A stretch of 32,805 nt of DNA, taken from the IMG/VR virus record IMGVR_UViG_3300012952_000063, positions 1-32,805 of that record; one strand, written 5' to 3'. The translations under genes and the position numbers were made by a program. Source of the stretch: a virus (lineage: Duplodnaviria; Caudoviricetes). This document shows, in pieces, positions 221-16,403 of the stretch (position 1 is the stretch's first letter; each line of letters opens with the position of its first letter). Below the pieces are notes generated by a model, which was given only the letters and a program-made list of their open reading frames with translations, had not been told where the DNA came from and ran no database searches.

Positions 221-931
221 CTATTTAGGGATTTTTAAGTTTCCATCTGGTAAAACCTCAAATTCCATAACATCGTTAAAACTTGTTTGAATATTAGGTG
301 AACCATTCAATCTACCTTCATTTAAATATTGAAACTCATGATTAAATGCAATTGATATTCTATCAAAGTCTACTTCATTAGGTTCTACATAATGTAACAT
401 TGCAGATGGAAATAGAAATAAATCACCTTCTACTGGGTCAACTACAAAATTATCTGCATCTCTTCTTGATGCATGTGTAAAATCTTGCATGTATTTTGCC
501 TGACCACTTATAAATTGCAAACAACCAGACCCCCTAGTTTCTTTCGGAACTTGTAAATAAAATACACCACTATACCAACAGCCAGGATGAGAATGTACAT
601 TATTATATGAATTTTTATAATTTATGTTTACCCAATAATTACCATGGTGTAATTTAAAATCTTTACTTTCATCTCCTGCGTAAAATGGAAATACTTCTTT
701 ATTAAAAACTTTTTCAATACCATTAATCATAGATTGGAAAATTGGTCTCTCATTTACACCATCATTAGACTGCCAACCACTACCATTATTAGAACGACTT
801 CTACCAATTGGGTCATTTTTTCTCATAGTATAACATTCTTTTTGCATTGCATGAAGTTGTTCATCAGAAATATAACCTTCTTTAATTAAATTAACTCTAA
901 ATACATTCCATGAAAACATTGGTATAAACAT
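221..931 (-). CDS. Putative 2OG-Fe(II) oxygenase, TIGR02466/2OG-FeII_Oxy_5-like
   Basis: Motifs SNxxGWQS, WVNIN, NNVHSHPGCWYSGVFY (HxH), LFLFPSAMLHYVEPN (distal His) and RISIAFN. The start overlaps the upstream stop (TAATG at 929-933). Confidence 0.85.
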   Translation of the reverse strand: MFIPMFSWNVFRVNLIKEGYISDEQLHAMQKECYTMRKNDPIGRSRSNNGSGWQSNDGVNERPIFQSMINGIEKVFNKEVFPFYAGDESKDFKLHHGNYWVNINYKNSYNNVHSHPGCWYSGVFYLQVPKETRGSGCLQFISGQAKYMQDFTHASRRDADNFVVDPVEGDLFLFPSAMLHYVEPNEVDFDRISIAFNHEFQYLNEGRLNGSPNIQTSFNDVMEFEVLPDGNLKIPK

Positions 932-1776
932 TATTTAAACTCCTTTTTCGATGCCCAGTTCTTTCTATAAACTTGTTTATATTCATTTCTATCGTCTAGT
1001 GGTTCTCTGTCATTCATTTTTTTTAATTCACCTTGGAATTCTTTTCTAAATTTTCCATGGAGTTCTTCTTTAGAAAGAAACTCAACTGTATGTTTCCAAG
1101 GATATCTAACAAAAGGTACAATCTGTACCAGTGGTGTACCTTTGGGTATTATAAAAGAATTATCAACTTTAGGATAGAATATCAACATATTATTTGTTGT
1201 CAATTGATTAAAACCATCGGTATCTATAACTCCTTGCCATGTTTGAAAGTATGGATTATCAAACAAAAATGGGTCAAGATAATAACAAGAAGTTCCTTTT
1301 GGTGTTTCAATTAAGAAATCCATTTTGAATTTAAATGCCATTTTATCATCCCAACTACTACCTTTAACTTGTACAGCAGGATGACCACCATGTTTTTGTG
1401 AACCTTCTAACCACTCATTCTCTGCAAGAATAAGACCTTTACTATGTGCAATTAATTGTTCTGGTGTTTCAGATTCTTTTATTTTTTTTAATTCTTCTGG
1501 TGTTACATCATCTTTTAATGGAAGAGAAATACTTATTGGTTCATTTCCATCATGTCCTATAAAAACAAATACTGAATGACGATTTCTAATTAGATATCCC
1601 ATAGATAACCAATCATGCATAGCTGGACATTTTTTTATTGTTTCAGATGATTTGTTTAACCCATTAGGTAACATAGTTGGTAATTTCTTATACCACTCTG
1701 GTTTTACTTGTCTAGCTGGAACTGGTTCAAATAAACGATTTTCACTGTCTATTACACACTGAAACTTTATTTCCAT
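931..1776 (-). CDS. DUF6065-like phage protein (dUTPase-like beta-clip region), function unknown
   Basis: Motifs TIKKCPAMHDWLSMGYLI, TPKGTSCYY, GVIDTD and IPKGTPLVQIVPF are typical of this family, which often sits next to phage 2OG oxygenases. The ORF track starts at 1800; ATG at 1776 (MEIKF), just after the upstream stop, is more likely. Confidence 0.6.
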   Translation of the reverse strand: MEIKFQCVIDSENRLFEPVPARQVKPEWYKKLPTMLPNGLNKSSETIKKCPAMHDWLSMGYLIRNRHSVFVFIGHDGNEPISISLPLKDDVTPEELKKIKESETPEQLIAHSKGLILAENEWLEGSQKHGGHPAVQVKGSSWDDKMAFKFKMDFLIETPKGTSCYYLDPFLFDNPYFQTWQGVIDTDGFNQLTTNNMLIFYPKVDNSFIIPKGTPLVQIVPFVRYPWKHTVEFLSKEELHGKFRKEFQGELKKMNDREPLDDRNEYKQVYRKNWASKKEFK

Positions 1777-1781
1777 TTCTT

Positions 1782-1970
1782 TTATCGGGCATTCGTCCAT
1801 AATCTTTCGTGTATATAATATAGTAATAGTTTCAAGAAAAAATCAAATGTCATTATTGCACCAGCAACTTCAACTGACCCTGTTAGTGCATATCCTATTA
1901 ATCCTGTAGTAACTGTTGCTATTATTCTCCATGAAAATGCTTTTACAATTGACTTACTGTGTGAATCCAA
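1782..1970 (-). CDS. DUF2061 family small membrane protein
   Basis: S-x-x-KAFSWRIIAT...two hydrophobic helices...LYYIHERLW signature. TTG start overlaps the end of the APS kinase gene. Confidence 0.85.
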   Translation of the reverse strand: MDSHSKSIVKAFSWRIIATVTTGLIGYALTGSVEVAGAIMTFDFFLKLLLYYIHERLWTNAR

Positions 1971-2742
1971 GTTGTCTCCTAATTTCTGTTGCAGAAATTA
2001 ATTCAGTCTCTTTGTCAAAAGATTCCTGTTCTATTTTATACCCTACATCTCTACCATAAGTTATGTTGACAACATTTGGTACTTTTTGTATAATATAGTG
2101 TACATTTTCTTCGTATCCTTCTCCAAGTAGATACATTTTAATATTTTGTTTAACTGTTTTAAAATCAAATGGATTCTTTGCAGTATTTTCCATTGCACGA
2201 ATCATAATAACCACTTGTCCTGTTTTATCATAACATCGTTTGAATAATGCAAAATGACCATCATGAAATGGTTGAAATCTACCTAACATTTGTGTAGTAG
2301 GTTTAGTTTCGTCAAACCTTCTATTCTCTGCAAGTATTTCTCTTGCAATAACCTCTGAATGTAGTTCACCATTCTGGTCTTCGACCAGATAGTCTACTTC
2401 GTTTTTGAGAGGTCTTTGAAATGCTTTATTGGTATCTGCATATCTACCTTTCTCTATTGTATCCATAAAGACTATATAATCTGGATTTAAAATTTGTCGA
2501 CCTTGAGTAAATGGACATACAAAATCCATAATTGCATATGGTTTTTCGGATTCTCTACATAAGTCTTTCATCCTATGTACCTGTCTCATTCTACCTTCTT
2601 CTGAGAAATCCCAATCGTTGTGTTGGGTTCGGATTGCATCTGCATTGAAATGGTCTGCATCTAAATGTTCAAGTAGACAATTAGAAATATAAGTTTTTCC
2701 ACTGCCAGGCAATCCCATAATTAAAATTGTTTTTGTTTTCAT
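1954..2742 (-). CDS. cysC: Adenylylsulfate (APS) kinase-like domain fused to a C-terminal HxGH nucleotidyltransferase domain
   Basis: N-terminal P-loop ILIMGLPGSGKT, NADAIR, DFSEEGRMRQ and DFVCP. C-terminal MLGRFQPFHDGH (2254-2289) and ISATEIR. The ORF track starts at 2766; ATG at 2742 (MKTKTIL) avoids overlap with the upstream gene. Confidence 0.8.
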   Translation of the reverse strand: MKTKTILIMGLPGSGKTYISNCLLEHLDADHFNADAIRTQHNDWDFSEEGRMRQVHRMKDLCRESEKPYAIMDFVCPFTQGRQILNPDYIVFMDTIEKGRYADTNKAFQRPLKNEVDYLVEDQNGELHSEVIAREILAENRRFDETKPTTQMLGRFQPFHDGHFALFKRCYDKTGQVVIMIRAMENTAKNPFDFKTVKQNIKMYLLGEGYEENVHYIIQKVPNVVNITYGRDVGYKIEQESFDKETELISATEIRRQLGFTQ

Positions 2743-2753
2743 AATAGTATATA

Positions 2754-3575
2754 TTATGCATCCCAAAGGGTTGCTTTATCTCCTCTTACGACCATACTTG
2801 TTCTAAATGGGAATCCATTTTCTTTAGTATATTCTACATCTGGGCCAGGATGTCTATGTGTAATTGCACCATTCATAATGACTAATCGATTTGGTTTATA
2901 TTTTACTCTACCAATTTCATAATCCTCTGCATTTTCTGGAATACCATTATATGAATGGTCATGATATTCACCATTGTACATTATTAAGTCACCACCCCAA
3001 TTATCTTCCCATCTTTCTTGGTCATAGTATAGGAATGTTAAATTGTTTAGACATGAATCATCTAATCCTGTGTCTTCATGAATAGTTCCATCTTGTCCAA
3101 TAGTTTGTCCATTAAATCCACAATATTGAAAATAATTCCAATCAAATTTAAAATCTTGTCTTAGTTTATGTATAAACCAATCTATCATAGGTTCTCTATA
3201 ACCTACATTATTAACACGAAATACATCCTTCTTCCATTCTGATTGTTTCATCCATCTTTTATTTTTTCTATGATATGACTCATAATGGTCTTGTATTGCT
3301 GTATTGTTGTGCCAACTATTTTTTTCCTCACCTACATTATGATATATTGATTCACCCCAATACAAATGTTGCATTTCATTATTACGAATTACTCTATTAC
3401 TTCTACCCCAGTTAACAGATGAATTTCTCCAATTTCTCCAACTCCACCAAATTGGAGGCGTAAGATAATTATCAAATACCCATACTTTTTGGAAAGGTAA
3501 TTTATCAATAGGTTTTGGTTTTTGCAGATATTCTATATTGAGAGGATGCATTAACCATTCGTAATGCATAGACAC
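2754..3575 (-). CDS. 2OG-Fe(II) oxygenase, prolyl-4-hydroxylase-like (2OG-FeII_Oxy_3 type)
   Basis: NGQT..QDGTIHED (HxD), LYY...WEDNWGGDL, YKPNRLVIMNGAITH (distal His) and FRTS (2OG-binding Arg). GTG start overlaps the upstream TAG. Confidence 0.85.
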   Translation of the reverse strand: MSMHYEWLMHPLNIEYLQKPKPIDKLPFQKVWVFDNYLTPPIWWSWRNWRNSSVNWGRSNRVIRNNEMQHLYWGESIYHNVGEEKNSWHNNTAIQDHYESYHRKNKRWMKQSEWKKDVFRVNNVGYREPMIDWFIHKLRQDFKFDWNYFQYCGFNGQTIGQDGTIHEDTGLDDSCLNNLTFLYYDQERWEDNWGGDLIMYNGEYHDHSYNGIPENAEDYEIGRVKYKPNRLVIMNGAITHRHPGPDVEYTKENGFPFRTSMVVRGDKATLWDA

Positions 3576-4213
3576 TATACAGCCCTCTTGTCCTCACCTA
3601 AAGAATCTTGTCCACCATTAACATCGAAAGTATCTGATTTAGTTTCAAATCTATCATCTGACCAATGAGTTTCAGTAAACTCATCCTGTGGTGGTGGTTC
3701 TGGTAATTGATTTAGATAAGTATCAAAGTCTTGCAAATCTCCATCAAGAGTTGCATTTAATTCTTCACATATTCTATATGCAGTACCAACTAAAAAATCA
3801 TTCCAGTCTAAGAATCTTCTTGCAATTTGTCTTCTAGGGTCATTAGAACCTTCTCTAGATGCAATAAGAATTTCAGTCATATTATCAAATTTGAAAAAAC
3901 CTAATCTTTCAAATCCAATTTCTCTTCGATTTTTTACTGACTCTTGAATATCATCTGAATATTGTTTTGTCATTGTGAGTTCCAAAGGTGGTTCACAAAG
4001 TTTAATATATTCTTCAATTTCTGCAATATTTTCCTCAGATAACTTTTCTACTTTTCGATTAAGTTCGTATTCGTAAGAATCATCATATGGTATATAAAAC
4101 ATAAAGTCATAATCAAAACCAAAAGAAGGTTTATCTGCTTTATCATAATTCCAACGAAGTCCTCTTTCGTTAGTTATATGTAAAACATTGTCGTGGTCAT
4201 ATACTAATAACAT
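3575..4213 (-). CDS. Acidic hypothetical protein, probable tail-fibre assembly chaperone
   Basis: GGAG RBS. The C-terminal half (FDNMTEILIAS..SNDP..QIARRFLDWND....YRICEEL...YLNQLP) resembles the helical phage tail-assembly chaperone pattern. It lies immediately downstream of the fibre genes. Confidence 0.45.
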   Translation of the reverse strand: MLLVYDHDNVLHITNERGLRWNYDKADKPSFGFDYDFMFYIPYDDSYEYELNRKVEKLSEENIAEIEEYIKLCEPPLELTMTKQYSDDIQESVKNRREIGFERLGFFKFDNMTEILIASREGSNDPRRQIARRFLDWNDFLVGTAYRICEELNATLDGDLQDFDTYLNQLPEPPPQDEFTETHWSDDRFETKSDTFDVNGGQDSLGEDKRAV

Positions 4214-4250: not shown

Positions 4251-5936
4251 CTAAGGCCAAGGTTTATTCAAATCACCATCCCATGTAGATACTGGTCTAG
4301 TCGAAGGTCGAGTAGATGGTCTAGTACTTGGTCTAGTTGAAGGTCTCGTTGCTGGACGAGTTTGTGTCACCTCATAAGAAGTTGGTCTACTAATAGTCTG
4401 TTCAAATGATGAAGGTCTACTAATTGTTTGTTCAAAACTTGTAGGTCTCGGAGTTTGGAAATTAGCAGGTCTATTAATAGTTTGTTCATAAGAAGTAGGT
4501 CTACTATTTTGTAACTGAGCAGGTCTATTAATAGTCTGTTCATAAGAAGTAGGTCTATTAATAGTTTGTTCATAAGAAGTAGGTCTAGGTATTGTCACTT
4601 CATAAGAAGTTGGTCTAGGTATCGTTTGTTCATAACTTGTAGGTCTACTACCTTGAGTCTGATAATACTGAGGTCTACCTATAGTCTGTTCATAAGAAGT
4701 AGGTCTAGGTATTGTCTGTTGATAACTAGTAGGTCTAGGTATTGTCACTTCATAAGAAGTTGGTCTAGGTTGCTGATAGTTAGTCGGTCTAGGTATCGTC
4801 TGCTGATAGTTATAACTAGGTGGTCTATAGTTTTGTATCTGTGTATTATAACTAGGTGGTCTATAGTTTTGTATCTGTGTATTATAACTAGTAGGTCTAG
4901 GTATCGTCTGTTGATAGTTATAACTTGGTGGTCTATAGTTTTGTATCTGATAATTTTGAGGGCCAGGGTTGAAAGGCCCATCTGGTTGATAGATTGGATT
5001 AAATGATGGACTTGGTACTAATGGGTTAAATGGTGTTAACTGTGCATTAGGTGATTGAACTTGAGTTGCAGCTGCACCAAATTTTGGATTAGCTGCAGTA
5101 TAAACTTGCACTTGAAAAGCTCCTGGCCTAAATCCTGTAGTTTGGAAATATTGTGGTCTATAACCTGTTGCTTGTCCTTGATAATTAGCAGGTCTATTAA
5201 TAGTTCCTTGAGTTTGAAAATATTGTGGTCTATAAGCAGTTCCTTGAGTTTGAAAATATTGTGGTCTATAACCTGTTGCTTGTCCTTGATAATTAGCAGG
5301 TCTAGAAGCTTGTAACTGGCCAGGTCTAGCTATCGTTTGTTCATACTGATTAGGTCTGTTAATTGTAACTTGATAATTAGCAGGTCTATTAATCGTTTGT
5401 TCATAGTTAGCAGGTCTAAAATTCTGTATTTGAAAGTTTGCTGGTCTGTTAATAGTTACTTCATAACTATTTGGTCTGTTAATAGTTTGTTCATATTGGT
5501 TTGGTCTGTTAATAGTAACCTCATAAGATGAAGGTCTATTAATAGTCACCTCATAACTTGTAGGACGAGGTGTCTGGAAATTTGCTGGTCTATTAATTGT
5601 AACTTCATACGATGTAGGTCTACTATTCTGCAATTGAGCAGGTCTGTTAATAGTTTGTTCGTATGTTGTAGGTCTATTAATAGTTACTTCATAACTATTT
5701 GGTCTATTAATAGTAACCTCATAGGGTTGTTGATAAGACTGTTGAAATGGTTGTTGAAATGGTTGTTGAAATGTCTGTTGAAAAGGTTGTTGCACCTGTA
5801 TAGTTCCAGTCTGGAATTCCCATCCAGTTGGAGTCTTTCTTTTTACATCAACTACTTTTTTCCAGCCAGATGGAGTCTTGACTCTCCATCCATTGGTGTC
5901 ATTCCATCCTGCTGGAGTTTTTACTTTTGAACTCAT
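4251..5936 (-). CDS. 561-aa Gln/Thr/Pro/Arg/Tyr-rich mirror-repeat protein, probable distal fibre or appendage
   Basis: GAGG RBS. N-terminal 3x KTPxGW, 40 units of 8-12 aa ending in RP, tetrapeptide repeats at both ends and a 55-aa core. Sits directly after the 1349-aa fibre gene. Confidence 0.85.
   Translation of the reverse strand: MSSKVKTPAGWNDTNGWRVKTPSGWKKVVDVKRKTPTGWEFQTGTIQVQQPFQQTFQQPFQQPFQQSYQQPYEVTINRPNSYEVTINRPTTYEQTINRPAQLQNSRPTSYEVTINRPANFQTPRPTSYEVTINRPSSYEVTINRPNQYEQTINRPNSYEVTINRPANFQIQNFRPANYEQTINRPANYQVTINRPNQYEQTIARPGQLQASRPANYQGQATGYRPQYFQTQGTAYRPQYFQTQGTINRPANYQGQATGYRPQYFQTTGFRPGAFQVQVYTAANPKFGAAATQVQSPNAQLTPFNPLVPSPSFNPIYQPDGPFNPGPQNYQIQNYRPPSYNYQQTIPRPTSYNTQIQNYRPPSYNTQIQNYRPPSYNYQQTIPRPTNYQQPRPTSYEVTIPRPTSYQQTIPRPTSYEQTIGRPQYYQTQGSRPTSYEQTIPRPTSYEVTIPRPTSYEQTINRPTSYEQTINRPAQLQNSRPTSYEQTINRPANFQTPRPTSFEQTISRPSSFEQTISRPTSYEVTQTRPATRPSTRPSTRPSTRPSTRPVSTWDGDLNKPWP
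4293..5789 (-). repeat. Coding tandem-repeat array (12/24/30/36-bp units) in two arms: 5124-5789 and 4293-4958
   Basis: Recurrent ggtct(a/g) (Arg-Pro) every 24-36 bp on the + strand. Exact 51-bp duplicate at 5146-5196 and 5254-5304. Confidence 0.95.
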
Positions 5937-5968: not shown

Positions 5969-8900
5969 CTATGAGTATGTTATCCAGATATCACCTACTG
6001 CTCCATCCGAACCACCTGGCGCAGAAGAATGTATGAATACATTTCTCATTGCCTTAGCACTTGCACCAATTGTTGTATAACTTGTTGTTGCAGCTCCTGT
6101 GAAAGCAGATGTTCCACTTACTGCTAAACTACTTAATGTACCAACACTTGTAATATTAGTTTGAGCTGCAGTTTGAATTGTACCTGTTACATTACCAACT
6201 AAGTTACCAGTGATATTACCACTTGAATTAATTGATGATGCCGCAACATTTGCAGCTACAAAATCTGCAGCTGTTAATGATAAATCACCAGTTGAAGAAC
6301 CTGTTGCAGTTGTTGTTGCAACTACAAATTTATCTGCACTTTCATCCCAACCTATAAATCCATTGTTACCTGTTGAACCTCTTTCTAGTATAAGACCCAA
6401 GTCATTACTGTTTGAACCAGTATTACCAGAACCAAGTTCTATTAATGCATCTTCAATAGTAGTGTTTGTTGAACTGTTAGTTACTGTTGAACCATTAACT
6501 GTTAGGTTACCAGAAATTACAACATTACCACTTGCAGTAACATCTGTTGCAGCTATATCTGCAAAAGTTACATCACTAGTTGTTGCAACATCCTGTCCAA
6601 TACTAATTGCAGGCTCCCATCCTTCACCAGCACTACCACTTACAGTAACACCAGTTCCACCAGTAACATTGTCTACATAGTTTCCAGAAGTTCCAGAACC
6701 TAATGCAACTGTTCCTACTACTAAGTCTATTGTATTATCTGCATCTTGATATGTTGCAGTAATACCTGTCTCAGTATTTGAACTAAACATTGCACCTACT
6801 GTGTCTGATACTGCCTCTGCAAAGTTTGATACTCCACTAGAAGTAATACTAATATCTACATTAGATGCACTTGTTACTCTACCTTTTGAATCTACTGCTA
6901 CTTGAGCAACACTATCTGCATCACCATAAGTTGCAGCTGATACACCAGAGTTTGCAAGTGTAATTGGTAATGCAACATTACCTGTTCCATCAAATGATTG
7001 TGATGAGTCTGTAGTTGCATCCCCTGTTACTGTAAAGTTTCTTGAAGTTGCAAGTGCAGTTGCAGTTGCAGCGTTACCAGTTGTACTTCCAGAAGAACCA
7101 GATACATTACCTGTAACATTTGCAACCAATGTACCTACTGTATATCCTGTTGCAGTTGTATTAACTGTTGTTGAAGGTACTGTTTGTGTATCTGCAAATA
7201 ATCTAAATGTATTATCTGTAGATGCATCAAAGAATAAACCTGCGTATTTTGTAGTACTTGACTCTACATACTTACCATAGAAACCAAAGTCTGTTGCATT
7301 TCCAGAGTTTGCATTTGTTAATCCTGTAAAGTTTGCATCGGATACTGTTGAACCTGTTTGTGTTGTTGTACCACTAACTACCAAGTTACCTGTAACTGTT
7401 AAGTCATTTGAAATTGTTACATCACTTGGTAATCCATATGTAATTGTTCCAGAATTTTCTACAACATCTACTTCGTTTGATGTTCCAGCAAAAGTTAAAG
7501 TACCACCTAATGATACTGGACTTGTATTTGAACCATCGGAAACTGTTATACTTGAATTTGAAAGTTTACTGTTTGCAATTGAACCAGATAACATTGCATT
7601 GTCTACTGAACCAGCTGCAATTGTTAATGCAATACTAGTATTACCTAGGTCTGTCATTGTACCAGAACCAGTCACATCTCCTGTTAGAGATATAGTTGGG
7701 TCATTAACATTAAAGTCTAAAGTACCATCTGAGTCATCATAGGTGACTGAGATACCATTTTCTGTGTTAGACGATACCATTCCACCTACAACATCTTGTA
7801 CTCTTTCTGTAGTATGGTAAAGGTTACTTGACCCTTCGGATAAGTTGTCTGTGTTAAATCCAGAAATACTTGTTACTAAATCGATAGTTCCATCACTATC
7901 TTCATAAGTTGCAGTGATACCTGTTTCAGTGTTTGAACTGAACATTGCTCCTACAGTATCTTGAACTACTTCTGTAAGGTCTATGTTTGCAGAACCATCG
8001 AATGAAACACCATGAATTGTTCTTGCAGTTTCTAATGCAGTTGCAGTTGCAGCGTTACCTGTTGTATCTTGGTTAAGTGTTCCAACTGTAAAATCTAAAG
8101 TACCATCTGAATCATCATATGCAACTGTAATACCACTTTCGGTATTAGATGTTACCATTGCACCTACGATATCTTCTACAGACTCAGTAAGGTCTGTAAT
8201 AGTTGATGCAGTTGTACTTACTACTAAATCGATTGTACCATCTGAATCTTGATATGTTGCACCAACACCTGTTTCAGTATTACCAGAGAACATTGCACCA
8301 ACAATGTCTTGTACTCTTTCTGCATTTACTGTTACATCACCAGAAGATACAGTAAAGTCTGTTCCATCAAATGATGCAATACCTTTGTTTGTTTCTGTTG
8401 CATCTTCTACAGATATAGTTGCAGTTGAACCTTCACTCGGTGTATGAGATACATCAATACCTTCACCAGCAGATATATCTAATAGATAATTACCAGTTGT
8501 ATCTGTACCTAATGCAACTGAGTCAGCTGCAATAGTTGATGCAATTGATACATTACCAGAACCATCAAATGAAACTGAACCAGTAACATCTCCTGTTAAA
8601 GAGATTGTTCTTGCATTCATTAATTGAGAAGCTGTACTTGCATTACCTTCTAGGTCTGCCAACAATGTTGATTGTGAATGACCAGTTCCAGAAGTATCTA
8701 CTGTAGTTGTAGGTTCTGATTGGTTACCATGGAATAATCTAAATTTACTTGATTCAGATGCATCCCATAATAGTCCTGCGTATTTTGTAGTTGAACCTTC
8801 AACATACTGACCATACAAACCAAAGTCTGTTGCATTTGCAGCGTTGTCTTTTGCAACTTTAACTGAACCATCTGTAACTTGTAATGTAGAAGATGATACT

Positions 8901-10018
8901 GTAGTTGTACTTCCTTGTACTGTAAGGTTACCAGATAGTGTTAGGTCAACTGCACTTGCATTTCCTGTAACTGTTAAATTGTTTCCAATAGTTACATTGT
9001 CTGGTAATCCTACTGTCACTGTTGCAGTTTCAGAACCAGAACCAGATACTTCAATTTCATTTGAAGTTCCAGAAATTCCAGAAACATAGTTTCCTGTTGT
9101 GTCTGTTCCTAATGCAACACTGTTAGCTGCAATAGTTGTACTAATAGATGTATTTCCTAGGTCTGTCATTGTTGCAGAACCAGTTACATCTCCTGTCAAT
9201 GAAATTGTTGGGTCATTGACATTGAAATCTAAAGTACCATCTGAGTCATCATATGTGACACTAATACCACTTTCGGTATTAGATGATACCATTCCACCTA
9301 CAACATCTTGTACTCTTTCTGTTGTATGATATTGATTTGTTCCTTCTGGTACTAATGTTGTACTTGATGGTGTTCCTACAATAGCAACATTACCCATTCC
9401 ACTATGGTTTGCACAATAGTAGTATAATGGGTTTAAACAGTCTTGTGCTAAACCTATTTCTACATATGCACCTGCTGAACCAGCAGTTCCTACTTTATTG
9501 TAAACTTTATATAATGTAGATGCAATCTCTGAACCACCACCATGAGTACCATCACTTGTTGTGGAGAATCTTAAAGGATGTGATGCATTACTATTATCTG
9601 ATTGGTCAAATCTATAAACTATACCCTTTGCCAACTTAAGGATATACTGTGAAGTACCATCAATAACAAAGTAACCACCACTAACTGTAACTGTAACTGG
9701 ATAATAATATGGATTTGTTCCAGCAATATTTTGTTCTACTGCAAGGTCAATAGTTCCATCACTATCTTCATAAGCTGCAGTTATATTTGTTTCAGTATTG
9801 GAACTAAACATAGCTCCCACTGTATCTTGTATGAATTCTGCACCTACTGTTGCACTAAATGTACCAGATGAATCATCATATGAAAATGATATACCTGTAT
9901 GTGAACCAGCAGCGAACAGACTTGAAATCTGGTCTTGTATCGCTTCAATTGCACCAGTAGAGTCTAATTCTCCAGATGCATTTAAAAGGTCTGCAAGATA
10001 TCTTGCTTTAGTTGGCAT
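5969..10018 (-). CDS. Long modular tail fibre protein (1349 aa) with a cupredoxin-like insert
   Basis: Gly/Ser/Thr-rich. Eight copies of the ExxQDxVGAMxSxNTExGIxxxYxDSDGTxDx module, TARTI-type fibre motifs, HPLRF...YYYCANHSGMG, and C-terminal SAPGGSDGAVGDIWITY. AGGAG RBS and an upstream late promoter. Confidence 0.85.
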   Translation of the reverse strand: MPTKARYLADLLNASGELDSTGAIEAIQDQISSLFAAGSHTGISFSYDDSSGTFSATVGAEFIQDTVGAMFSSNTETNITAAYEDSDGTIDLAVEQNIAGTNPYYYPVTVTVSGGYFVIDGTSQYILKLAKGIVYRFDQSDNSNASHPLRFSTTSDGTHGGGSEIASTLYKVYNKVGTAGSAGAYVEIGLAQDCLNPLYYYCANHSGMGNVAIVGTPSSTTLVPEGTNQYHTTERVQDVVGGMVSSNTESGISVTYDDSDGTLDFNVNDPTISLTGDVTGSATMTDLGNTSISTTIAANSVALGTDTTGNYVSGISGTSNEIEVSGSGSETATVTVGLPDNVTIGNNLTVTGNASAVDLTLSGNLTVQGSTTTVSSSTLQVTDGSVKVAKDNAANATDFGLYGQYVEGSTTKYAGLLWDASESSKFRLFHGNQSEPTTTVDTSGTGHSQSTLLADLEGNASTASQLMNARTISLTGDVTGSVSFDGSGNVSIASTIAADSVALGTDTTGNYLLDISAGEGIDVSHTPSEGSTATISVEDATETNKGIASFDGTDFTVSSGDVTVNAERVQDIVGAMFSGNTETGVGATYQDSDGTIDLVVSTTASTITDLTESVEDIVGAMVTSNTESGITVAYDDSDGTLDFTVGTLNQDTTGNAATATALETARTIHGVSFDGSANIDLTEVVQDTVGAMFSSNTETGITATYEDSDGTIDLVTSISGFNTDNLSEGSSNLYHTTERVQDVVGGMVSSNTENGISVTYDDSDGTLDFNVNDPTISLTGDVTGSGTMTDLGNTSIALTIAAGSVDNAMLSGSIANSKLSNSSITVSDGSNTSPVSLGGTLTFAGTSNEVDVVENSGTITYGLPSDVTISNDLTVTGNLVVSGTTTQTGSTVSDANFTGLTNANSGNATDFGFYGKYVESSTTKYAGLFFDASTDNTFRLFADTQTVPSTTVNTTATGYTVGTLVANVTGNVSGSSGSTTGNAATATALATSRNFTVTGDATTDSSQSFDGTGNVALPITLANSGVSAATYGDADSVAQVAVDSKGRVTSASNVDISITSSGVSNFAEAVSDTVGAMFSSNTETGITATYQDADNTIDLVVGTVALGSGTSGNYVDNVTGGTGVTVSGSAGEGWEPAISIGQDVATTSDVTFADIAATDVTASGNVVISGNLTVNGSTVTNSSTNTTIEDALIELGSGNTGSNSNDLGLILERGSTGNNGFIGWDESADKFVVATTTATGSSTGDLSLTAADFVAANVAASSINSSGNITGNLVGNVTGTIQTAAQTNITSVGTLSSLAVSGTSAFTGAATTSYTTIGASAKAMRNVFIHSSAPGGSDGAVGDIWITYS

Positions 10019-10051: not shown

Positions 10052-10059
10052 TATTTATA
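10052..10059 (-). promoter_or_regulatory. T4-type late promoter TATAAATA
   Basis: Exact consensus on the - strand, intergenic, about 34 nt upstream of the 1349-aa gene. Confidence 0.85.
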
Positions 10060-13886: not shown

Positions 13887-16403
13887 TTACGACTTTAAAC
13901 TTTCTATTTCTGTTTTAAGTTCTTTGATTGCTTCAATTAATAATGGAACTAACTTTTCATATTGAACTGTCTTATATTCATTATCAACTGGTGCTGGTTG
14001 AACGACTTCTGGTAATATTTGTTCTACTTCTTGAGCTGATACACCAATCATGTTTACATTCTTATCAAACTGATTACTTAAATCAGATGCTGTATCATTC
14101 CAATTAAAGTGGAAACCATTTAACGATTCTACTTTCTCTAGAGCATTTTCAATGTTATCACCTCTGTCTTTTAATCTATCATCAGATGCATATGCAATAA
14201 TATCACCTGTTGATGAAACCTGTGCAAAAGATACACTACTAGTAGTATTAGTTGCTTGGTTAGATGAATATGTTGTATATCCAGATGGGTTAGTACTATT
14301 ATATGGTGTAAATCCTAATGCAGTTGTAACATCGGAAGAACCAATTGCACTAGTGTAATGAGGTGCAGATGTGTTTGTTGCACCAGCTTGAATACCAGCA
14401 AGTTTAGTGTTTAGTGCAGAAGTAAAGTTTATTTCTGTTAATCCACCATTACCTACACTATATGTTGTGTTAGTATCTGTTGATGCTATATTAAATACAC
14501 CAGTTGTTGGTTCTGAAATAGTTACATTACTTCCACTTTGAAGAGTAATACTACCAGTTCTATAAGAACCAGAATCTTCTCTGATTTGTGTAACTGTATT
14601 ATCATTATTATCAGTTGAACTAATTGTTAAACTACCTGTACTACCATCGTATGATACAGAAGTTGCACCACTACCAGATATCATAGCACCAACAATATCT
14701 TCAATATGGTCGTGGTCAATACTTACTGCACCAGAAGATACTGAGAAATCAGTTGAACTAAATGATGCAATACCTTTATTAGTTGCAGTAGCATCTTCTC
14801 CTGCTACTGTTACAGTTGAACCATTTATGACAGTATTCATACCTTCACCACCAGCAATGGTCATTGTTGTTCCTTCGGATACTGCTTTGGTTGAACCAGT
14901 ATCAGCTGCTTGACTCCAACCAGAATATGTATCTACTGATACTTGACCAGCAGCTGTTAGTCTTCCCTGTGCATCAACTGTAAATGTTGAGATTGCACTT
15001 GCAGAACCATATGAACCTGCTGATACAGCAGTATCATCTAAACTTATACTATGTGCAATACCTTCACCAGAAGTTGCACCAGTTGATGTTAAAGCAGTTC
15101 CTGCTACTAATGTACCAACATAGTTACCAGATGTTTTTGTTCCTAAAGTTACTGCATTATTTACAATTGCATCTGTATCTACTGAATCGTCTGCTAACTC
15201 ACTAGCGTTGATTGCATTTGCAGCTATCTCTGAACTTCCGATTGAATTAGCTGCAATATTACCACCGACAATTGTGTTGTCTGCAATCATTGAACTTACA
15301 ATTGCGTCATTACCTATTACTAAATCTAAAGTACCATCTGAGTCTTGGTATGTTACAGTAATACCTGTTTCAGTATTAGAACTGAACATTGCACCAACAA
15401 TATCTTCAATCTCTTCTTGAGTTTTACCAGATGTACTAATTGTTAAAGAGTTTGAAGCGTCATCATATGTTAATGTCATATTAGTACCTGCTACTAACAA
15501 TCCATCTATAGTATCTTGTATTTGTTCTGTAAGGTCTATGTCTGCACTACCATTAAATGATACACCATGTATTGTTCTTGCAGTTTGTAATGTAGTTGCA
15601 GTTGAAGCGTTACCTGTTGTATCTGCTGTTCCTGTTGCAGAAATTACACCAGTACTAGAATTATATGAAATGGTTGAACCATCACCATTGATTAAATTTC
15701 TAACACTCGTATTAAATCCAGATAAATTTGATGCAGTAATTTGTGAACCATTTACTTTTATTTGTCCACCACTTGTTAAATTTAAATTACCATTTACGAA
15801 TACTTCGTTTGATGTACCACCAGTGTTTAAGAAAATATTTGAACCAGATGACTCTAATTGAATTCCATATCCACTTGCTGGTGCAGTTACAATACCTGTA
15901 GCATCTGAGTTTATTACAACACCATTTTCAGTATCATGATTGTAAATAGAACCAGCACCAGTCTTAGTCCATTGTGTTACTGCACCTTGAGTTGCACCAG
16001 CAACACCTTCATATGAACCAGTGAAGGATGTAATTCTTATAATGTCTGAGTTTGCAGCTGATGTTGCAAGAGTAATACTTGAACCATTAGTTGCAGAATA
16101 GTCTGTACCACTTCTAAGTAGTGTACCATTTTTAAATACTAGTACTCTATTAACAGAATATTTTAATGTTTCACTAAAGTTATCTGTACCACTAAATGTT
16201 CTATTTGAACTTGTACCATTTGAACCAGTAAACTCAAAGTCTTGAAAAAAGAAATACTGGTCAATAATACTATTGATAGAATCTACCAGTGAACTTTTTT
16301 GACTTGTTCTAAGACCACCTAATCCACCGACCTCATCTACAAGGTCGTTATAGGAAGTTCTTAAGACTTCTAGTGTATCGTTGTTACTAACATTCTTTGC
16401 CAT
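13887..16403 (-). CDS. Tail fibre protein with a C-terminal peptidase S74 intramolecular chaperone
   Basis: C-terminal ASDDRLK..IENALEKV..LNG..FNWN...GVSAQEVEQILPEVV...YEKLVPLLIEAIKEL (about 13887-14186). Shares fibre modules with the 1349-, 483- and 431-aa proteins. Confidence 0.9.
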   Translation of the reverse strand: MAKNVSNNDTLEVLRTSYNDLVDEVGGLGGLRTSQKSSLVDSINSIIDQYFFFQDFEFTGSNGTSSNRTFSGTDNFSETLKYSVNRVLVFKNGTLLRSGTDYSATNGSSITLATSAANSDIIRITSFTGSYEGVAGATQGAVTQWTKTGAGSIYNHDTENGVVINSDATGIVTAPASGYGIQLESSGSNIFLNTGGTSNEVFVNGNLNLTSGGQIKVNGSQITASNLSGFNTSVRNLINGDGSTISYNSSTGVISATGTADTTGNASTATTLQTARTIHGVSFNGSADIDLTEQIQDTIDGLLVAGTNMTLTYDDASNSLTISTSGKTQEEIEDIVGAMFSSNTETGITVTYQDSDGTLDLVIGNDAIVSSMIADNTIVGGNIAANSIGSSEIAANAINASELADDSVDTDAIVNNAVTLGTKTSGNYVGTLVAGTALTSTGATSGEGIAHSISLDDTAVSAGSYGSASAISTFTVDAQGRLTAAGQVSVDTYSGWSQAADTGSTKAVSEGTTMTIAGGEGMNTVINGSTVTVAGEDATATNKGIASFSSTDFSVSSGAVSIDHDHIEDIVGAMISGSGATSVSYDGSTGSLTISSTDNNDNTVTQIREDSGSYRTGSITLQSGSNVTISEPTTGVFNIASTDTNTTYSVGNGGLTEINFTSALNTKLAGIQAGATNTSAPHYTSAIGSSDVTTALGFTPYNSTNPSGYTTYSSNQATNTTSSVSFAQVSSTGDIIAYASDDRLKDRGDNIENALEKVESLNGFHFNWNDTASDLSNQFDKNVNMIGVSAQEVEQILPEVVQPAPVDNEYKTVQYEKLVPLLIEAIKELKTEIESLKS

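Follow-up and report, generated by a model that had tools for sequence, protein, structure and literature searches.

A mirror-repeat protein encoded among the tail fibres of a T4-like phage, marine and uncultured, with arms that may zip into a fibre-tip rod

Why should the repeat units of a phage protein run through a series of lengths, reach a core and then run through the same series backwards? The question is raised by a protein of 561 aa (P0001) encoded in the 32,805-nt stretch of viral DNA analysed here (IMG/VR record IMGVR_UViG_3300012952_000063; hereafter, the window). The reading that we favour, with a probability of about 0.6, is that the two arms of the protein zip onto each other to form one rod, which would dock on the end of the fibre encoded upstream and carry the variable core at its far tip. 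The gene and its parts are the following:

4251..5936, minus strand: mirror-repeat protein P0001, 561 aa
5946..5950, minus strand: GAGGA, a ribosome-binding-site-like motif 9 nt ahead of the ATG, read from the sequence
5790..5936, minus strand: head, aa 1-49, with three K-x-KTPxGW repeats
5901-5927, 5859-5885 and 5817-5843, minus strand: the three K-x-KTPxGW repeats of the head
5124..5789, minus strand: outgoing arm, aa 50-271, 5 tetrapeptides and 20 units of 8, 10 or 12 aa
4959..5123, minus strand: core, aa 272-326 (55 aa), with a conserved PK[FY]G motif
4293..4958, minus strand: return arm, aa 327-548, 20 units and 5 tetrapeptides, the mirror and type-complement of the outgoing arm
4254..4292, minus strand: tail, aa 549-561 (13 aa), with a WDG...WP motif

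Cutting the translation after each RP reproduced the mirrored series of repeat lengths claimed in the initial annotation, with both arms measuring 222 aa (49+222+55+222+13=561). The tetrapeptides read QPFQ QTFQ QPFQ QPFQ QSYQ in the outgoing arm and ATRP followed by four STRP in the return arm; three kinds of boundary are not RP cuts, namely those of the N-side tetrapeptides, the one at which the first unit starts and the one that closes the core, after GP. When residues i and j are set face to face at i+j=597, 38 of 45 RP ends reflect onto RP ends, and the next best sum reaches 26. The same multiset of 18 inner unit lengths could be arranged in 1,113,840 orders and the length series within a single arm is no palindrome. 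Thus, neither chance nor the simple duplication of one arm explains the mirror. The gene contains 573 direct 12-mer pairs versus a single inverted one (9 others are reversed without being complemented), as expected from the earlier description of the DNA as direct-repeat. We therefore rejected a DNA palindrome or hairpin as the source of the symmetry.

The mirror is also kept by relatives of the protein. Together with the window's own copy, three scans yielded 46 distinct proteins of full length, and the mirror test was run on the 45 that have a core. Read from the outside in, 35 of these 45 are exact mirrors, in 22 different length patterns that a minimum spanning tree connects by at least 62 unit edits; arm lengths thus co-vary among homologues, a check that had been proposed from the window sequence. 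Two of the relatives, L001 and L041 (91-92% protein identity), have a length pattern identical to that of the window protein. The full-length relatives that are not exact mirrors (11 of 46) include six records at least 99.4% identical to a mirrored record, whole-unit indels aside, which is the pattern that assembly collapse or fresh slippage would leave. In L035 the order is mirrored with 12-residue units opposite 13-residue units, L012 and L072 have one additional residue beside the core (an 11-residue unit facing one of 10), and L045 and L062, for which the set contains no close mirrored twin, miss units from one of their arms. Repeat collapse is a real hazard in such records, and no compared contig spans the whole P0001 gene, two points that speak for misassembly (or a palindrome at the DNA level) as the origin of the mirror. 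Yet collapse breaks mirrors and could not produce 22 different ones, the pattern recurs in L001 and L041, only one 12-mer is inverted, and contigs of run X2 matched six pieces of the gene with 0 differences; we regard an artefact as already refuted and give it practically no weight. A contig of run X15 (record 5, on window positions 5061-5805) skips 36 and 228 nt in frame in the outgoing arm, which represents a variant or an assembly-graph artefact. Contigs from RNA libraries overlap parts of the gene and are not evidence of transcription, and five genome-contig matches, in MAGs of five unrelated taxa, point to no host.

Codon changes against L001 and L041 differ along the protein. In the arms, silent changes outnumber replacements (61 vs 33 and 56 vs 34, respectively), the head has zero replacements, and the core has 14 replacements vs 8-9 silent changes. 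Mean identity follows the same profile, at 96% in the head (across 33 relatives), 46% in the core, the least conserved part, and 98% in the tail; in 13 relatives the core is an RP-free stretch of 27-70 aa. The proposal that the symmetry is selected at the protein level is supported. The mirror is real, selected and far outside known families.

How the arms match each other is apparent from the types of the facing units. In 359 of 393 facing pairs the two units are of opposite type, as compared with 255±6 (maximum 279) in 2000 shuffles within protein and within length; this count takes one representative per pattern, omits the outermost pair and applies three type rules derived from the same data on which they were scored. 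Across 35 proteins, 8-mers of the V/L-QN type lie opposite the Y/F-QT type in 98 of 99 cases and never opposite their own type, EVT faces EVT in none of 319 inner pairs, and YN-type 12-mers are never opposite YN. The types are interchangeable between arms, each occurring on either one. The outermost unit pair of the window protein, which stands outside the code counts, places V opposite V. Covariation was examined in 205 pairs of E-type 10-mers. At unit positions (5,5), (1,8), (8,1), (2,8) and (8,2) it was higher than in any of 1000 shuffles within proteins, the parallel positions (8,8), (1,1) and (2,2) did not rise above shuffles, and (3,3) was weakly raised (2/1000). Covariation on the anti-diagonal and off the parallel diagonal is an antiparallel signature.

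From these sequence patterns, we consider it very likely that the arms physically pair in antiparallel fashion. A contact map centred near i+j=598 had been predicted; the pairing code, the anti-diagonal covariation and the two-gene versions described below support such pairing, with the register at 597 in this protein, and with it a placement of the core at the end opposite to the two termini. Facing residues at 597 include I-Y, E-T, P-P, N-S, R-T, Q-Q and V-Q. The cross-strand E/R pairs that had been proposed as well are lacking at sums of 597-599 and appear (20 of them) only at 600, so this part of the early model did not hold. Pooled mutual information within the window's own group was best at +9 with +4 to +8 close, and does not fix the residue register. 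In six relatives, the arms have HxH motifs that form mirror pairs and move together, their His-His pairs, like A/T pairs, falling at 599, two residues from the 597 register. Units of this kind, with HQH opposite HVH, HTH, HLH or HFH, were seen in L015, L067, L070, L037-L039 and L187, and such mirror-paired units are possible metal sites.

A poor AlphaFold2 model of P0001 (34 sequences, pLDDT 40, pTM 0.16) was examined through its DSSP string. Reflection at exactly 597 places the 70 strand residues of the outgoing arm, without exception, on the 70 of the return arm, as against 38 matches for the best parallel shift; the arms contain no helix and the head was called beta, with low confidence. 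A Foldseek search of the PDB with this pLDDT-40 model gave no match at E≤0.001, a result that is uninformative on fold novelty, and the best VIA-align result had a Z of 2.1 and an rmsd of 7.7 with 67 aligned. As to the giant beta-hairpin or ribbon first envisaged, the antiparallel pairing is supported but a continuous, regular ribbon is not, as P lies opposite P every 8-12 residues and the pLDDT-40 model has strand in only part of each arm. The arms are probably organised as short beta-paired segments with proline cross-overs rather than as one smooth hairpin. The length of the proposed rod, first put at 70-75 nm, becomes 60-75 nm when recomputed for 222 residues at 2.7-3.4 Å per residue.

The same design recurs in other fused proteins and in a two-gene form. 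A third group comprises ten fused proteins (434-753 aa) with another repeat vocabulary and the same WDG...WP tail. All ten (10/10, leave-one-out) prefer the register given by the position of the third head Trp plus that of the tail Trp plus 6, a sum that equals 597 in the window protein. Fused mirror proteins of 378-753 aa written in the vocabulary of the split clade were seen at L188, L190, L191, L195, L197, L201, L202, L204, L205, L209 and L385; the L195 type has RPAT-like units in the outgoing arm and PFQQ-like units in the return arm, opposite to the window protein. A larger clade shares the head, has no tail and shows no whole-body mirror in single proteins; the neighbouring gene encodes a repeat protein that bears the tail. 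We had considered these head-bearing proteins as linear, unpaired fibres, an idea overturned by the finding that the return arm is the neighbouring gene. In the two-gene form, gene A encodes the head, the outgoing arm and the tip, and gene B the return arm and a WDG/WDN..WP tail, in the order A-B or B-A behind the same fibre end and sometimes with a gene of 90-100 aa in between. Two-gene loci include L081-L158, L189, L220 and others, as well as L194, L199, L276, L347 and L388.

With a pair matrix trained on the ten fused proteins only, 81 offsets were compared, and the +6 register came first in 63 of 66 gene pairs. It did so again in 29 of 30 additional pairs (11 of them with gene B ahead of gene A), and 8 other A genes had no complete partner in the DNA examined. 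Together these make 92 of 96 pairs, many of them close kin and hence not 96 independent events. Cognate A:B combinations scored 0.88 vs -0.46±0.26 for non-cognate ones, and the cognate partner ranked in the top 3 in 87 of 91 cases. One head, one tail and one register link the fused and split forms: W11, W25 and W39 are invariant in 72 heads of both types, and the WDG...WP motif stands at the end of every fused relative and of the return-arm proteins that are encoded separately.

Pairing in trans is thus encoded in the split form, and covariation is blind to whether contacts lie within or between chains. Both points would suit an antiparallel homodimer of extended chains, in which the N arm of one lies on the C arm of the other and no chain folds back. 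Such a dimer is nonetheless very improbable, given that the symmetry centre is occupied by freely variable cores of as few as 27 aa, one A and one B suffice for a whole rod with a single head, and the strands of a single-chain model are already mirrored.

In at least 45 of 66 pairs, by a rough rule for arm ends, the return-arm protein starts opposite the point at which the outgoing arm finishes, and therefore the end domains of gene A (Hint, globular or short) would replace the core of the window protein at the distal position. A Hint-like C-terminal domain was recognised by a C...HN pattern in 31 of 94 A proteins (for example, L081:4001-5284), in 20 of the 31 directly after GGGG, and the Pfam intein/Hint matches fall slightly below the cut-off. 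Predicted in this way, the Hint domain would lie at the distal tip, where it might cleave itself or ligate a molecule. Two genomes with a group-3 copy (L310 and L312) carry, in addition, a second fused mirror protein of 508 aa (L310:2507-4030, L312:2555-4078) behind a fibre ending in GHLWFVI. This protein has one register (1.02 vs -0.22) and a weak match to phrog_13729, and in place of a KTPxGW head it has short motifs of a similar kind, with one copy at the N-end and two at the C-end. Two small proteins of 130-140 aa (P0185 and P0188) consist of three [KN]TPxGW repeats and a short body, with a weak PKD match in P0185; judging from such sequences, the KTPxGW head may be a general fibre-tip adaptor.

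Where the rod would be attached is suggested by its neighbours, two of which flank the gene:

5969..10018, minus strand: upstream tail-fibre-like protein, 1349 aa, ending in RN..S.P...DGAVGDIWITYS (GDIWITYS), with PHROG tail-fibre matches
3575..4213, minus strand: companion gene, 212 aa, conserved, of no known family

Of the 158 head-bearing locus records (among L001-L159, duplicates included), 156 have an ORF with a GD[ILM]W end immediately upstream and the other 2 are cut off; in B-A loci the return-arm gene is inserted between this fibre and gene A. Because the ends of the protein are 96-98% conserved and the linkage to the GD[ILM]W fibre holds in 156 of 158 records, docking through the base is the favoured arrangement; the rod is likely to be attached to the fibre end, with the 1349-aa protein as the presumed partner of the P0001 head. 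The fibre gene is preceded by a TATAAATA motif, the T4 late promoter consensus, at 10052-10059. The window is a T4-like structural region with gp25-, gp6- and gp8-like genes, a VrlC-like gene (phrog_358, so named by its position) and several fibres, and its gp6 is most similar to those of the isolates Melnitz (43%), Mosig (42%) and HTVC008M (39%). A separate fibre of 838 aa with a Peptidase_S74 chaperone is encoded at 13887-16403 (minus strand), and downstream of the module, at 221-3575 (minus strand), are 2OG-Fe(II) oxygenase-like genes, an APS-kinase/cytidylyltransferase-like gene and a DUF2061 gene. In phages of this kind the region between VrlC and the neck genes is described, in the available part of the source, as a host recognition cluster (PMC7029224). 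The same text places many non-fibre genes in this region of pelagimyophages (PMC7029224), which would allow the paired arms to form a head or neck appendage, or a non-virion protein, away from the fibre tip. We consider this improbable in view of the tight linkage to the GD[ILM]W fibre across fused, A-B and B-A orders and of the combination of conserved ends with a variable tip.

Relatives of the companion gene lie behind fused and split modules at 22 of 43 loci, many of the others being likely cut by the flank. Its product shares 30% identity (E 4e-25) with the copy in L194 and matches nothing in Pfam or PHROG, and a tree of the 22 rows sets the window's group apart; an assembly factor is a possible role. 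Behind split and group-3 modules, but not behind those of the window's group, there is a gene of ~500-525 aa (in part phrog_28018), as at L194:3852-5405 and equivalents.

The rod docked on the fibre end invites comparison with the distal adhesin gp38 of S16- and T2-type phages, which is encoded directly behind the distal fibre gene and, in the sections of the source at hand, has an N-terminal module with three conserved Trp-bearing elements and a variable distal part (PMC6851490). In S16, gp37 and gp38 form a monomer-on-trimer joint via three Trp (PMC6851490, in part). One chain per fibre is favoured here because the head consists of three internal Trp-bearing repeats, as in S16 gp38 on trimeric gp37; by this analogy, the three KTPxGW repeats would match the three fibre chains, a stoichiometry to which we give an even chance. 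The differences are also clear. According to the same partial text, gp38 uses an alpha-helical bundle to attach to the gp37 end that remains once an S74 chaperone has been cleaved, and a polyglycine sandwich for binding (PMC6851490), whereas P0001 has a head predicted to be beta, a presumed fibre partner that lacks an S74 domain and has a GD[ILM]W end, and a body proposed to be a long rod. There was no GP38 (PF05268) or Gly_rich_2 match in P0001, which has 20 Gly in 561 aa. An ESM Atlas model of the head resembles the N-ends of GP38 and Gly_rich_2 clusters (TM 0.58), a modelled likeness to be taken as a lead only; a Gly_rich_2 protein is the product of the gene that comes after the last fibre gene in HTVC008M and Mosig.

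The closest topological precedent is the needle of T4 gp37 (D10 knob plus D11 stem and tip), in which, in the accessible parts of the sources, each chain runs out, turns at the receptor-binding tip and returns, with the termini at the base (PMC9603124, PMC6957217, PMC9659904). Antiparallel strands, large-small cross-strand packing and, in some relatives, HxH motifs are further likenesses; useful points on needle size and HxH motifs also come from the available portions of PMC13730344, PMC3004832 and PMC11705849. The anti-diagonal covariation and the mirrored model strands indicate, indirectly, that the P0001 chain likewise goes out and back with both termini at its base. The likeness raises an alternative in which the out-and-back pairing is kept and three chains assemble into a six-stranded, gp37-like needle, paired in part between chains around a buried Y/V/I core. 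T4 chains do have both termini at the knob (PMC9603124, as far as available), and the out-strand residue G921 packs on F970 in the return strand of another subunit (PMC6957217, in part), a contact comparable to the A-Y, G-Y and A-F pairs seen here. A bare two-stranded rod would also expose a Y/V/I face, which counts against the two-stranded view; two covarying registers (597 and 599) and the mirror His pairs of six relatives would suit a trimer with six-His sites, and the single His-His pairs of L039 would make a six-His site only if the rod were trimeric. Yet the window protein has no His, a head with three internal repeats would fit one chain per three-fold tip, similar motifs appear to be divided in the L310/L312 paralogue between one N-end and two C-end copies, and no sequence match to gp37 was found in the PDB, Pfam or PHROG. 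We consider the six-stranded trimer a serious rival, though less likely, and favour the rod of one chain, or one A:B pair, per fibre.

Other differences from gp37 concern scale and composition. The stem strands of gp37 have 50 residues (882-931 and 960-1009) versus 222 here and a maximum of ~500 in split relatives; in the partly available sources, gp37 has seven Fe sites and no modular repeats or unit code are described, whereas P0001 has no His and mirror-paired HxH motifs in the arms occur in six relatives only. The mirror-repeat family also has natural two-gene versions, unlike gp37. As to homology to the gp37/gp12 collar and needle, there were 0 PDB sequence matches at E≤10 and no such Pfam or PHROG family. 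The stalk of streptococcal antigen I/II proteins (SpaP, SspB and AspA) is a second precedent, as one out-and-back chain whose paired repeat regions project a variable domain; in the available text, the pairing is between an alanine-rich alpha-helix and a polyproline helix, so that the arms are unlike (PMC3178794). By analogy, the variable domain of P0001 would also be at the apex, with a core at 46% identity between ends at 96-98%, but both arms share one vocabulary, with types that swap and spaced Pro, and the protein is phage-encoded with no wall anchor. A pairing of an Ala-rich helix with a Pro-rich polyproline region was not found, Ala accounting for 23 of 561 residues and the arms having no helix in the model.

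Family libraries returned low-complexity matches only, all below the cut-off (Keratin_B2, Extensin and two unknown PHROGs), and nothing significant for the head alone; none of 50,697 records of isolated phages carries the head. A word-indexed protein search gave 1 match, a chimeric-looking record, and a search of representative proteins gave fragments, unrelated repeat proteins and the lead P0089. The RBPseg atlas lists no such fibre class in its available part (PMC12143355), and no description of this design was found in a literature partly covered, without supplements. The topology therefore has precedents; for a modular complementarity code common to fused and split strands, we found none.

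Put together, the proposed rod would work as follows. The two 222-residue arms, with their complementary unit types, would zip antiparallel into a rod of 60-75 nm. Head and tail would meet at its base and dock, through the three-tryptophan head, on the fibre with the GD[ILM]W end. At the distal end, the variable core would be the likely host-contact part, and we lean slightly towards the tip being a receptor binder. Reach and tip could then evolve as units are gained, lost or swapped in step on the two arms. It is an open bet, at even odds, that these proteins represent duplex-like fibre extensions, with strands of 200 to more than 500 residues paired by an antiparallel modular code, made from one chain or two genes, attached in one copy to the end of a trimeric fibre and fitted with exchangeable tips that include self-cleaving Hint domains.

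Among known out-and-back fibres, we found none that holds register over more than 200 residues via interchangeable complementary modules. The ~150 natural variants amount to a table of permitted facing residues, information that previously came mainly from short model hairpins. If the proposed reading is true, the arms would constitute a programmable two-strand protein zipper and a molecular ruler, and the family would be a new class of device for recognising hosts, in T4-like phages that are abundant in the sea and have fibre genes for the most part without annotation.
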